A stretch of 16,085 nucleotides of DNA, from positions 1 through 16,085 of IMG/VR virus record IMGVR_UViG_3300045988_169639; one strand, given 5' to 3'. The DNA is from a virus. Numbering within the stretch: the first letter of the stretch is position 1; each line of letters starts with the position of its first letter. The notes under the pieces were generated by a model that saw only the letters and a list, made by a program, of their open reading frames with translations, ran no database searches and was not told the origin of the DNA. A program made the position numbers and the translations under genes. Of the stretch, positions 1 to 16,085 are shown in pieces.

Positions 1-1469
1 TTGAAGAAAGTAATTGGTTTTTCATTTCCATTAGATGTTATCAAAGTAAATGGTTTCAAATATTCTGGAGATATTATAGTTTTAGAAGTATTAAACATAA
101 TACCATTAGATAGATAATTCTCAGCAACATTATTTAATAAAAACTCTACTCTATCAGTTTCTGGATATTTATAAGCCTTGCCAGCATAAACCATATCTCC
201 TGCATAATCTAGATGATATTCAATAAAATCTGAACTGATTATCTCATTCCAAACATAATCTTTCCAAATAGGAGATATATCAGATTTAACAGATTGTGTA
301 ATATTAATAGATAAATTAATAATACTTGAACTATTCTTTATAACAGATACTCCAATAGTTGCTTGTCTAGAAGATAAACCTGAATTTTCTGCAATGTTCA
401 AACTAATAGTTGCTACACCTTGAGAATTTACAGATAACTTCTGTCCACTAATCCAACCTACAGGAATACTAAATACAACATCATCTAAGTTGTTTGATCC
501 TGTACCCATTATATTTAATGTAGATGCAGTTCAACTTACTTCATAATTAGTATTAGGAATCATTAAAGATGTTGCAGCTTGTTTAATTGGAACTGTAGCT
601 TCAAGAGTGTAACCTCCAGAAGTTGTTGCAGTAACCATTGCACTAAACTCTAAATTATTAGTAGTTTTATTCTCTGGAACAGTTAATACAAAATAGTTAT
701 CAACAATATCCTTTTTAATATTACTAGCTTGAGGGCAGGTAACATTAAATGAGGTAATTGTTTCTTCTGCTTTAGTTGTACTTAAATGGAATTCTTCAGT
801 AACAAAAGCAGATGCTCCATAAGTTCCAGATGAAGGAGTTACTACTAGCTTTAAATCTTCTGGAATATTGCTTTTTTCAATCTTAAAGCCGTAACTATAA
901 CTAATAAGCTTATTAGTGTCATAATAAGCTGCTAATTGAATAGTTCCAATTAAATCTGTATTCCATTGAGTATTAGCTCTTACTGTAACTTTAAACTTAA
1001 TAGAGCAAGAATCCCAATCCAGAACTTCCATATTAACTAAAGCTGTAGCATTAACAACTGCTGCATCTCATTTAATAATATCTGATCTATTTAATATATA
1101 CTCTACTGTATATTCTCCACCAGTATTTGGTACTTTAATGGTGCCATTAGCAGGATAATATCCAGGAGCTTTACTATGTAGATTAATTGGTAAATCTTCC
1201 ATTAATAAAGCAGTAGTAAGACCTCTAGGATAAAAATGAAATACAGTAGAAGAATCAGTAGTTATTGTTGTAGGAGATAAAAATTGTATTGTACATCCAG
1301 AAGTACTAGGCTCTTGTATAGTTACCTCTAAAGGCCCTTCTTCTGAATAGTCATCTCCCCAAGCCCAATAATCATATTCTCCAGTAATTCCCCATCCAGG
1401 ATTATTCCATTTAACAGGAAAACTCCTTGATGCGTTATATATTCCTAATTTACTTGGTATAAATGCCAT
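1..1469 (-). CDS. Virion structural protein with Ig-like/BACON-like repeats (tail fibre or receptor-binding candidate). The 3' end runs off the left edge of the window.
   Basis: ATG at 1467-1469. Track ORFs 1068-1469 and 531-1031 are joined in frame by TGA at 1068-1070. A second TGA at 531-533 leads into a frame that stays open to position 3. Both TGAs sit in beta-rich repeat contexts (..SDIIK-W-DAAVV.., ..NYEVS-W-TASTL..); the second resembles the S-W-T-A-S signature of BACON-type domains. The sequence is Thr/Ser/Asn-rich and repetitive, typical of fibre or adhesin proteins. Confidence 0.6.
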
Positions 1470-1471
1470 TT

Positions 1472-1960
1472 TTAAAAGTTTTTAAATACATAATAATCTA
1501 CTTGTCCTTGAAGATCTTTAGTTATAGCATCATCAAGAAGCTCCATATAGTTATTTTCTATATATTCTATAGTATTTGATAATAGATGTTTACCTTGAAT
1601 TCCTTGAAGATGTATCTTCCTCCCAATTAAATATGTAAGCTGATCTATTGTTGGTAACTTACCATTATAAGGTCTGGGAATAATTGGCTTAGTTTTAATC
1701 CAACTCTTTATATCATTAAGTGGAGGGAACTTACCAGAATGTCTGCCTTCTTCAACGTATTTCCAATAATCTAATAAACTAACATTAACTTCATAATCCC
1801 CATTTTGGGTCTCAACAATGTAATTTAAACTATTACCTAATAATCCAGTATCATCAGTCCTTGTTTGAACCAATTCCTGTCTATATAAAGAAATTATGAG
1901 TTCTCCTCAACGTCTTAATAACTCATTTAAATTTGGGAAATTTAGTTCTTGAATATTCAT
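1472..1960 (-). CDS. Hypothetical virion protein, 162 aa, with weak HK97 gp10-like head-tail/tail-completion resemblance.
   Basis: The track ORF 1472-1873 starts at a TTG. The same frame continues upstream through TGA at 1907-1909 to ATG at 1958-1960 (MNIQELNFPNLNELLRR-W-GELIISLYRQELVQTR..). The stop is TAA at 1472-1474. The DYWKYVEEG motif loosely recalls the gp10-family YxxxVE(F/Y)G motif. Confidence 0.55.
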
Positions 1961-2003
1961 TTTTGTTAAAATATATTAATTTATAGGTTAGTATCTAAAC
2001 ACA

Positions 2004-2079
2004 AATAGGGAGACTTACTCCCTATTAAGTGTCAAGTTTTTTACTCAAATTTAGTAGTTAAAATAAATAAAAACTGACA
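2004..2079 (-). repeat. Structured intergenic element, copy A: a conserved 50-nt imperfect inverted repeat (2030-2079) followed by a 9-bp hairpin (2004-2026).
   Basis: The minus strand reads TGTCAGTTTTTATTT-N17-TGAGTAAAAAACTTGACA, then AATAGGGAG-taagt-CTCCCTATT, then TGTGTTT. The 15-nt and 18-nt arms are identical to copy B at 16035-16084. Confidence 0.7.
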
Positions 2080-2081
2080 TT

Positions 2082-2399
2082 TTAATGTTTTCGTTTTCAT
2101 TCTTCAATTTGTCTATTTTCTTCATTAGCTTTATCTATAACATAACAAATTGTATTTAAGAACTCTTTAATTTGCATATCATAAACTTGATGCCAATTAA
2201 ATTTAGTAACCTCACTTACTTTATCTATTCAGATAATTCAGCTTCATTTTTGAGTAAAAGGAGTAACCGTCTCATCTGTATCAGACTCCTTAGAATCTTT
2301 CTCCTTTCTAATTTGTTCTTTGTTTTCTTCAATTTCTTCTTCATCTCTCTTTCCGAAGAGTGAAGGGTACTCAGAGTTGATAGTCGCAATAAGTTTACA
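2082..2399 (-). CDS. -1-frame extension (105 codons) reached from the T9 run; the predicted fusion product is about 261 aa.
   Basis: The -1 frame after the T9 run reads CKLIATINSEYPSLFGKRDEEEIEENKEQIRKEKDSKESDTDETVTPFTQK-W-S-W-II-W-IDKVSEVTKFNWHQVYDMQIKEFLNTICYVIDKANEENRQIEE-W-KRKH, ending at TAA 2082-2084. It is open only if the four TGAs (2244-2246, 2238-2240, 2229-2231, 2097-2099) are sense codons. It has no ATG near its start, and a TAA lies 33 nt upstream in the same frame. Confidence 0.55.
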
Positions 2400-14885: not shown

Positions 14886-14895
14886 TATTTTACTT

Positions 14896-15285
14896 TTATT
14901 TTCTTTCATAAGCTGTGTATTTTGATTGATAGTCATATTGGTATTTATTATTATCATAATTACCTACCCTCATTAAACCTGAGCTTAGTATGCTTATGGG
15001 AGTACCAGCTACAAGTATCTCTGTTCCATTTGTGAGAGTATTGGAATATGTAACTAATATTACAGGATTACCATACAATTCACTTCTATAAATATTATTA
15101 GTATCAATGATTATATCATACTTATTAGGATTTTCAAATAAGATATATTGATACTCTCCGTCATCCATATCTTCTAAAGTTATATCAAATTTATAATATA
15201 TATTTTCAGAATAATTCTGATTATTTAAATTATAAATATAAATTTGTTTTGTTACAGTATGCTGAAGAACAAGACTATAATTCAT
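14896..15285 (-). CDS. Hypothetical protein (129 aa).
   Basis: It is an intact ORF with ATG 15283-15285 and TAA 14896-14898. It is Asn/Tyr-rich and has no recognisable motif. Confidence 0.5.
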   Translation of the reverse strand: MNYSLVLQHTVTKQIYIYNLNNQNYSENIYYKFDITLEDMDDGEYQYILFENPNKYDIIIDTNNIYRSELYGNPVILVTYSNTLTNGTEILVAGTPISILSSGLMRVGNYDNNKYQYDYQSKYTAYERK

Positions 15286-15940
15286 ATTTTCAAATATATT
15301 TTTTATATGTGGGAATTATGCCTCTTAAAGCATTATATACACCACTTCTTGTAAATTCATCTTCTAGCTCTCTAATTCTACTATATTTTTTAATTAGTTT
15401 TCCATCTAAAGAGTATCTGAGAATATATTTATATTTGGGATTTGGCCTAGTCTTTCAAGCTTCTTTCATAGCTTGTTTACATTCCTCACTTCTTGATTTT
15501 CCATATAGAGGATGAAATTCTCCAGATCTACAATAATTACTAGTATGTTTGCCGTAATTTGGATTCTTTTCTCCTCTTTTTGCTTCAGACAATCTTTTTC
15601 TCGTTTCCTCAGTTATTATATGTCCAAATCCACCATCTCCTCCATCTGTCATATTATATCCATTTATTTTAGAATTAAATAAATTAATATATTTCTTTTC
15701 AGCTTCATCTAATTTTCTATTTAATAAACTTTCTGAGGTACAACAAAATACCTGTATAGTTTCGATAATAAAATTTTTATCTCCATATTTTCTAATAGCT
15801 CGACTTAAATGATAATCCAAACCAGATTTTGCTTTCAGTTTATGCTCAATGAACCTACGTTTAATATCTCTGGTAGTTTTTCCAATATAAATCTTATTGT
15901 TTATTAAATTAGTTATTTTATAAATTGTTCCACTTTGCAT
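15275..15940 (-). CDS. GIY-YIG homing endonuclease, copy a (221 aa): NUMOD3 repeats and NUMOD1/IENR1-like C-terminus.
   Basis: The N-terminus GTIYKITNLINNKIYIGKT..RF.EH is a GIY-YIG motif. The track ends at TGA 15455-15457, but the frame continues (..AMKEA-W-KTRPNPKYKYILRYSLDGKLIKKYSRIRELEDEFTRSGVYNALRGIIPTYKKYI-W-KYEL). A second TGA lies at 15290-15292, and the stop is TAG 15275-15277. Confidence 0.85.
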
Positions 15941-16008
15941 AATTTTTACATTAGTTTTACATATCTTTTTCTTAAAATATAAACTAATTTACTAATGTAT
16001 TAAAATAA

Positions 16009-16084
16009 TTAAAGGAGACCTAAGCCTCCTTTAATGTCAAGTTTTTTACTCACTCAAAGTACTAAGAAAAAATAAAAACTGACA
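16009..16084 (-). repeat. Structured intergenic element, copy B: a 50-nt inverted repeat (16035-16084) followed by a 9-bp hairpin (16009-16034).
   Basis: The minus strand reads TGTCAGTTTTTATTT-N17-TGAGTAAAAAACTTGACA, then TTAAAGGAG-gcttaggt-CTCCTTTAA, then TTATTTTAAT. It has the same layout as copy A, but the second hairpin has a different sequence. Confidence 0.7.
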
Positions 16085-16085
16085 A

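Follow-up and report, generated by a model that had tools for sequence, protein, structure and literature searches.

We describe a 16,085-nucleotide stretch of viral DNA (positions 1 to 16,085 of the IMG/VR record IMGVR_UViG_3300045988_169639, the whole of which is referred to here as the window) in which TGA serves as a sense codon and, to judge from codon comparisons, almost certainly specifies tryptophan. The window is about half of the 30–32 kb genome of a tailed double-stranded DNA phage of the human gut. Its GC content is 28%, and over long stretches it is 97–99% identical to contigs of about 30 kb from the IMG metagenome 3300045988, a human faecal sample co-assembly (10.1101/2023.07.31.550844), in keeping with the recoded gut phage proposed in a preliminary description made from the sequence alone. 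Every window gene was aligned at the codon level with related IMG/VR loci (about 60). The genes, read with TGA as a sense codon, are listed below with their sizes in amino acids (aa); each TGA is denoted by the position of its first base, and codon counts in brackets are those of the alignment column at that codon.

3–1469, minus strand: tail protein, N-terminal 489 of 726 aa, running off the window start, with a full-length orthologue in locus L006; TGAs 1068 (TGA in 19 of 19 sequences) and 531 (TGA 14, TGG 2, TAT 3).
1472–1960, minus strand: neck/tail-completion-like protein, 162 aa, matching phrog_5 ('tail completion or Neck1'); TGA 1907 (TGA 8, TAT 12, TAC 1).
2082–2405, minus strand: putative -1 frameshift extension of the next gene, ending in the TAA at 2082–2084; TGAs 2244, 2238, 2229 and 2097.
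2225–2866, minus strand: 213-aa protein (frame 0), downstream of the large terminase subunit gene; TGA 2795 (TGA 7, TGG 2, others Lys, Arg or Tyr codons).
2868–4115, minus strand: large terminase subunit (TerL), 415 aa, with Terminase_6N at residues 37–231 and Terminase_6C at 248–401; TGA 3555, residue 187 (TGA 17, TGG 5, GGT 1; standard-code relatives W 26, F 28).
4885–5217, minus strand: 110-aa membrane protein; TGAs 5125, 5086, 5044 and 5020 (TGA predominates in the columns; TGG also occurs at 5086 and 5044).
5186–5752, minus strand: HNH homing endonuclease (Pfam NUMOD4/HNH_3/NUMOD1); TGA 5309 (TGA 6, TGG 7, TAT 5), with the C-terminal Trp at 5204 encoded by TGG.
5734–5991, minus strand: 85-aa helix-turn-helix (HTH)/sigma-70 region-4-like protein with an HTH_50 match; TGA 5887 (TGA 15, TGG 5, ATG 1).
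5975–6283, minus strand: 102-aa protein; TGA 5996 (TGA 17, TAT 3, TAC 1; W in one standard-code relative).
6273–6707, minus strand: 144-aa protein; TGA 6633 (TGA 18, TGG 1).
7281–7766, plus strand: T5orf172/MUG113-domain protein (Pfam); TGAs 7575, 7665 (TGA 7, TGG 1) and 7671.
8024–9742, plus strand: SF2-helicase-like protein, 572 aa, with DEYH and TAT motifs and an AlphaFold match; no TGA.
9645–9902, plus strand: small open reading frame (ORF), up to 85 aa; TGA 9804 (TGA 12, TGG 1).
10231–10872, minus strand: GIY-YIG/NUMOD3 homing endonuclease (Pfam); TGAs 10678 (in KYG-W) and 10243 (in the C-terminal W-R-Y).
10814–11263, minus strand: Peptidase_M15_3 endolysin (Pfam, residues 3–131) with an intact H-x6-D...H metal triad; TGA 10880, residue 128.
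11263–11424, minus strand: holin-like protein, 53 aa, with two transmembrane segments, adjoining the lysin; no TGA.
11428–12081, minus strand: 217-aa protein with an N-terminal transmembrane segment; TGAs 12040, 11815, 11644 and 11479 (TGA 10, TGG 2 at each of 11815 and 11644).
12081–12608, minus strand: 175-aa ORF with a GTG start, overlapping the upstream gene by 100 nt.
12508–13185, minus strand: DUF6712 protein (Pfam); no TGA in the window.
13175–13837, minus strand: second GIY-YIG endonuclease (Pfam NUMOD3/NUMOD1); TGAs 13670 (TGA 7, GAA 1) and 13391 (TGA 5, TGG 1).
13818–14957, minus strand: portal protein, 379 aa, with a Phage_portal match; TGA 14799 (TGA 2, TGG 2; W and F in standard-code relatives).
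15275–15940, minus strand: third GIY-YIG/NUMOD3 endonuclease (Pfam); TGAs 15455 and 15290 (TGA 4, TAT 4, TTT 1).

All 33 in-frame TGAs named in the preliminary description are present on the strand given for them (29 minus, 4 plus), and on enumeration of ORFs with table 4 each lies in a frame bounded by TAA or TAG. Our independent count within real genes also comes to 33, so that none had been missed. Stops of the 27 complete genes are TAA (20) or TAG (7) and never TGA, as had been claimed, and 17 genes contain TGA (18 if the frameshift extension is counted apart), matching the number that the standard code was said to fragment or hide. Under the standard code (code 11), 60% of the window is covered by ORFs of 100 aa or more; the figure is 87% under code 4 and 61% in a control in which TAG is the sense codon (code 15); in standard-code relatives, code 4 adds just 0–11 percentage points to the same measure. 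Pfam matches to the merged proteins run across the TGAs: Terminase_6N and Peptidase_M15_3 span the TGA residues 187 and 128 noted above, GIY-YIG (1–79) spans residue 48, NUMOD1 (133–167) residue 148 and T5orf172 (2–109) residue 99. The one match of the lysin in a PDB sequence search covers residues 47–93 and stops short of the TGA column. The earlier statement that TGA is a sense codon throughout the window needs narrowing: the sense reading stands, but 10 of the 28 genes have no TGA, and the 572-aa gene is TGA-free family-wide apart from the single codon counted below.

We give practically no credence to the view that the standard code applies, with real TGA stops, and that the fragments reflect pseudogenes, misassembly or frames open by chance: gene callers using code 11 do give shortened products, and of 120 lysin homologues 43 stop at precisely the TGA of the 'H-W-V-H' motif, but dozens of variants that were assembled independently keep the same TGAs, domains and sequence conservation run on past them, the gain in coverage under code 4 has no counterpart in the TAG-sense control, and the essential TerL, portal and tape-measure genes would all be broken.

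Three independent tests of the amino acid specified agree on the tryptophan first proposed. The first is alternation between codons. Family-wide, in Trp-majority columns that contain TGA, TGG accounts for 867 of the approximately 1,008 alternate codons, followed by TAT/TAC (61), TTT/TTC (19) and GGA (14), so that TGA and TGG do behave as the synonyms they had been taken for. The exchange runs in both directions: the Trp at 13006 in the DUF6712 gene is TGA in 8 of 12 relatives, and the C-terminal Trp at 5204 of the HNH gene, cited in the preliminary description as the TGG version of a motif written elsewhere with TGA, lies in a column of 4 TGG and 12 TGA. The second test is the residue found in homologues at the motifs in which Trp had been recognised. 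The M15 'H-W-V-H' column at 10880 has W in all 77 homologues that cover it and no other residue; the 'KYGW' column of the GIY-YIG proteins has W in 115 and F in one of 116 homologues; and the C-terminal 'W(K/R)Y' column has W 104, F 8, Y 3 and I 1. The third test uses distant standard-code relatives only, in which the residues aligned with TGA positions include W 35, F 30, Y 12, G 3 and C 1, the aromatic three together making up 77 of 98. Gly is absent from the lysin and GIY-YIG columns of the second test.

About 1.6% of all codons are TGA or TGG, which is normal for Trp, and a TerL peptide crossing a TGA reads, in translation, '...SFDWALEDTSMLLDK'. TGA is not followed by C more often than expected, as a leaky-termination context would have it, and the following base does not differ between TGA and TGG (p = 0.27). 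At one of the positions, 13391, I-TevI aligns Ser, and the Trp there is accordingly lineage-specific. For the tail protein with the TGA at 531, described earlier as part of a BACON-like repeat, the repeat label is not supported, as this protein has no Pfam or PHROGs match. On these comparisons we regard the assignment of TGA to Trp (table 4) as very nearly certain.

That TGA is instead read as Gly (code 25), Cys or selenocysteine is exceedingly improbable. Code-25 phages of Absconditabacteria and Gracilibacteria share with this one the use of in-frame sense TGA and are found in gut as well as oral samples, the TerL column holds one GGT (from L022, a relative of 31% identity), and GGA is found 14 times among the alternates. 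However, TGA is Gly in those phages and Trp here: the predominance of TGG among the alternates, the near-invariant W of the M15 and GIY-YIG columns and the alignment of TGA positions with W, F and Y in standard-code relatives exclude all three amino acids, and 33 sites in 16 kb are far too many for selenocysteine.

Three of the TGAs (2229, 2238 and 2244) require a further assumption. The frame that holds them lacks any ATG, GTG or TTG ahead of the ATG at 2177; every variant nevertheless keeps it open and conserved, also over 2178–2224, where no other gene overlaps it. It lies at -1 relative to the gene at 2225–2866. A slippery heptamer, T_TTT_TTT, is situated at 2399–2405 in the frame-0 register, and the same heptamer is found in the same place and register in all 7 divergent variants compared, although some of their proteins are just 37–40% identical to that of the window. 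TGA and TGG exchange within this frame as well ('QKwSwIIwIDKV' versus 'QKWNWICwIDRV'). The simplest reading of this arrangement is a programmed -1 frameshift that would give a product of approximately 261 aa beside the 213-aa one, in which case the three TGAs would be sense codons of the frameshift extension rather than of a separate gene and would be coding solely by way of the frameshift. The layout resembles that of the tail-chaperone G/GT pair, but is placed just after TerL.

TGA is used unevenly across the genome. Of the Trp codons, 38% are TGA, in the window as in the family as a whole, whereas other A-ending codons make up 68–97% of their A/G-ending pairs. Counted over distinct orthologues, there is one TGA against 75 TGG in the SF2-helicase-like gene (16 orthologues, down to 72% identity), and no TGA against 76, 48 and 14 TGG in the genes for the capsid, a 174-aa virion protein and the scaffold respectively; the holin-like gene (29 TGG in 15 orthologues) and a gene at 6707–6988 (21 TGG) are likewise without TGA. 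Among the remaining genes, where these have Trp codons in over three distinct orthologues, TGA accounts for 11–100% of the Trp codons. Columns in which Trp is always TGG number 15 of 16 in the low-TGA genes, a set chosen after seeing the data, versus 23 of 111 in the rest of the genome. The capsid, the scaffold and the 174-aa protein are presumably the virion proteins made most abundantly. Genes that do carry TGA encode the terminase, portal, tail proteins, tape measure, lysin, regulators and homing endonucleases. Genome-wide they number 24 of 42 (57%), which falls inside the range of 26–71% of genes recoded in recoded phages of standard-code hosts and below the approximately 90% of code-25 phages in code-25 hosts (10.1101/2021.08.26.457843). 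This pattern points to a costly or conditional decoding of UGA, and for that reason a non-native code fits better than a long-established code-4 host.

No gene larger than the SF2-helicase-like one at 8024–9742 can be translated with the standard code. Its 572-aa product has no Pfam, PHROGs or PDB sequence match; its AlphaFold model (pLDDT 80) matches SF2 helicases, generically only. The family is very large (741 matches) and homologues sit in early modules of Bacteroidota prophages. It is probably an early gene.

A TerL query gave 22 IMG/VR loci, and later queries raised the recoded lineage to 62; the related IMG/VR contigs are 29–32 kb in length, and the loci cover near-completely a genome of about 30 kb and about 45 genes. 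The rest of the genome encodes a tape-measure protein, prohead protease, scaffold, capsid, fibres and two more tail proteins, one of 726 and one of 1,146 aa. No GenBank phage matched the whole window in Megablast, tblastn of TerL against the same set gave identities of at most about 30%, and a PHROGs search of the window proteins yielded almost no annotation. A 148,631-bp IMG/VR contig (3300045988_175865; loci L026, L128 and L148) contains an exact 2,256-bp repeat whose copies are 29,846 bp apart, and this spacing gives a unit length of about 30 kb for the phage. More than one unit of the genome is present in the contig, whose assembly is probably chimeric or concatemeric; its upstream part has further TGA-rich tail-fibre genes, among them one with 10 TGAs for a collagen-like protein of 541 aa.

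With ARAGORN, neither the window nor any locus of the recoded lineage yields a tRNA. Pairs of these loci span near-complete contigs (L017 and L042 together cover contig 073522 except for 852 bp), so that no tRNA, with a UCA anticodon or any other, is present in near-complete genomes, and as the genome is small and near-completely covered the absence is not a sampling gap. An Rfam search at E ≤ 1 of the window, L042 and L033 likewise gave no tRNA, and ARAGORN at 80% thresholds and in mitochondrial mode gave weak, poor candidates only. The 98-nt candidate at 12971–13068 (plus strand), found at the 80% threshold with anticodon CCA in the window and TCA in relatives, was rejected as a false positive because it lies antisense to a TGG/TGA Trp codon of the gene at 12508–13185 and its stems are mismatched. 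A Pfam scan of the window proteins and two other proteins of the genome revealed no release-factor or aminoacyl-tRNA synthetase domain, and the preliminary description was thus right that neither a suppressor tRNA nor a release-factor gene lies in the window. A suppressor tRNA is detectable in 35% of code-4 phage genomes (10.1101/2021.08.26.457843), so that carrying one is common but not strictly defining. With no recognisable phage tRNA, release factor or tryptophanyl-tRNA synthetase (TrpRS), decoding would have to come from the host cell, a co-resident element or an unrecognised phage factor.

The sense reading of TGA, its identity as Trp, the lack of a tRNA and the uneven use of TGA are shown by the data above; we infer the code and phylum of the host, and the source of the decoding, from the lysin, the initiation signals and the relatives of the phage. 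The best explanation, to which we assign a probability of about 0.6, is phage-specific recoding in a host that uses the standard code and is probably a member of the Bacteroidota; given such a host, the recoding would be of the kind described by Borges et al. UGA is translated as Trp in the phage and only UAA and UAG terminate; TGA and TGG are interchangeable in most genes, including those for packaging and virion proteins, lysin, regulators and homing endonucleases, and in this scheme TGA is selected against in the SF2-helicase-like gene and in the genes for the capsid, scaffold and 174-aa protein. The host would be peptidoglycan-bearing and not reliant on Shine-Dalgarno (SD) sites, and UGA decoding would be supplied from one of the three sources just named.

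Several lines of evidence point to such a host. The intact M15 peptidase and the holin-like gene next to it, whose putative role is assigned because it adjoins the lysin, imply that the host is walled. SD-like motifs upstream of starts are at background (13% versus 12%), as they are in nearly all standard-code relatives, and no AGGAGG precedes the starts. Relatives at 41–54% TerL identity use code 11. One from another metagenome, L144 (IMGVR_UViG_3300032038_000557; TerL 59% identical over the N-terminal 148 aa), is also TGA-recoded, its ORF coverage rising from 54% to 89% under code 4, and the recoded clade therefore reaches beyond a single faecal co-assembly. Members of the 572-aa family occur in prophages that have inserted at tRNA genes and adjoin Bacteroidota-type integrases (Arm-DNA-bind_5/Phage_int_SAM_5) as well as OmpA-like and DPPIV genes. 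One member lies in L151 (ENA ERZ28598220 scaffold_71, 132 kb; positions 5652–21740), a TAG-recoded prophage, with 13 in-frame TAGs in TerL and 3 in the portal gene, that has inserted at a tRNA-Thr gene next to a Phage_int_SAM_5 integrase. Its host keeps the standard code, with TGA stops, and is Lentimicrobium-like (Bacteroidota), its GlnA clustering at ≥90% identity with Lentimicrobium proteins. A relative of the lysin is likewise found in an integrated element with a Phage_int_SAM_5 integrase and DUF5053, which we take to be a Bacteroidota-specific domain, adjoining RND/OEP efflux genes.

Some observations weigh against phage-specific recoding in a Bacteroidota host, or against parts of it. 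A scan of GTDB with a TerL profile gave phage-sized contigs of metagenome-assembled genomes (MAGs) only, at TerL identities of at most 46%, and no direct host; no host genes appear in the roughly 20 kb further upstream along the 148-kb contig; and the nearest standard-code relatives come from MAGs labelled variously as Clostridia, Lachnospiraceae and Rikenellaceae. The p value for the TGG-only columns (about 2e-8) is inflated by the post hoc choice of the low-TGA set. TGA is present in the HTH gene at 5734–5991, a putative regulator, and in the helicase operon genes at 7281–7766 and 9645–9902, so that there is no clean early module in standard code, and the capsid and scaffold genes are late genes yet free of TGA, the opposite of the pattern in which late genes are recoded. 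Finally, with no tRNA, release factor or TrpRS of its own, the phage in a standard-code host would be left without a known route for translating its terminase, portal, tail and lysin genes.

The main rival explanation, with the same decoding of TGA as Trp, is that the host itself uses code 4, being a Mycoplasmatales-like organism or a member of an undescribed gut lineage, and that the phage simply matches it, which we consider possible but rather unlikely. Host-supplied decoding is the simplest mechanism for near-complete genomes without decoding genes, and the occurrence of TGA in regulators, endonucleases, packaging, tail and lysis genes alike and the lack of any gene ending in TGA are as such a host would have them. 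Mycoplasmatales, however, lack peptidoglycan, whereas the lysin and holin-like gene imply a wall. A matched phage is also difficult to reconcile with a share of TGA of 38% in the face of otherwise dominant A-ending codons, the exclusion of TGA from the helicase, capsid and scaffold genes, a proportion of recoded genes well below that of code-matched phages, the lack of an SD signal, helicase and lysin families common to Bacteroidota elements, and relatives that use the standard code. The GC content of the phage is close to the Mycoplasmatales mean of 27%, and new code-4 gut lineages are still turning up; the known code-4 bacteria, however, are Mycoplasmatales, a few endosymbionts and some Eggerthellaceae, with no Bacteroidota among them (10.64898/2025.12.01.691617). 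None of these groups matches a host with a wall and no SD signal.

Stop-codon-recoded gut phages, small code-4 genomes included, are already established, and the present lineage adds to a known kind, to which TGA-recoded crAss-like phages also belong; among recoded clades with small genomes, Garnet and Amethyst are of about 34 kb and Topaz of about 22 kb (10.1101/2021.08.26.457843). It resembles the code-4 gut phages of Borges et al. in its gut origin, low GC content, alignment of TGA with Trp, possession of standard-code relatives, recoded tail, terminase and lysin genes and share of genes recoded; many of those genomes have no detectable suppressor tRNA, and a Bacteroidota host is plausible for both. 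It departs from them in having TGA-free capsid and scaffold genes and TGA-bearing regulators, without a clean split between standard early and recoded late genes, in that no integrase is seen, and in its small and near-completely covered genome, in which the missing tRNA cannot be put down to sampling.

With L151 the lineage has in common the 572-aa SF2-helicase-like family (45% identity), and in each phage its gene is free of the recoded stop, TAG in L151 and TGA here. Both have small genomes with recoded late genes. In contrast, L151 recodes TAG, is integrated at a tRNA-Thr gene with an integrase alongside and has a terminase of a different type. With the phages of Mycoplasma and Spiroplasma the lineage shares TGA as Trp, no need for a phage tRNA, and low GC content; unlike those phages, whose hosts have no peptidoglycan, it carries an M15 lysin, under-uses TGA and has genes in common with Bacteroidota elements.

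As the phenomenon is known, the contribution of this lineage is that it is small, near-completely covered, rich in strains and without a suppressor tRNA, that TGA and TGG turn over rapidly between its strains, and that TGA is excluded from the SF2 helicase and major virion proteins. It therefore offers a compact test case for the route of UGA decoding and the translational cost of recoding. There is a practical side as well, in that the genes which code 11 splits or hides include those for the terminase, portal and lysin, and public protein sets already hold truncated products such as those of the lysin; code 4 is a necessity for any analysis of these abundant gut phages.

The decoding of UGA without a phage tRNA is the sole part with real potential for novelty. 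We put forward, with considerable doubt, that either one of the TGA-free genes, of which the SF2-helicase-like gene is the obvious candidate, might encode a non-tRNA switch for UGA read-through, or UGA decoding might come from the host strain or a co-resident recoded phage. If so, the lineage would be a minimal system for the missing mechanism of code change in the roughly 65% of code-4 phages that have no detectable suppressor tRNA.

The phage population is a mosaic. Five genes of the homing-endonuclease type (one HNH, one T5orf172 and three GIY-YIG, at 5186–5752, 7281–7766, 10231–10872, 13175–13837 and 15275–15940) are each found in just a subset of otherwise near-identical variants, the T5orf172 gene for example in 7 of the first 22 related loci, and these genes appear to drive the mosaic structure. 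For the Bacteroidota -7 promoter motif TAnnTTTG there is no enrichment (33 occurrences versus 25.6 expected). With regard to individual gene starts, the real start of the ORF at 12081–12608 is probably the ATG at residue 35 (12506), because of its 100-nt overlap with the upstream gene and because L004 and L012 align only from residue 35. One feature other than a gene lies between two convergent genes:

10191–10230, no strand assigned: putative bidirectional intrinsic-terminator hairpin (GGAGGG...CCCTCC, flanked by A and T runs).

The hairpin contains matches to AGGAGG on both strands and gives a weak Rfam match to Spd-sr37.

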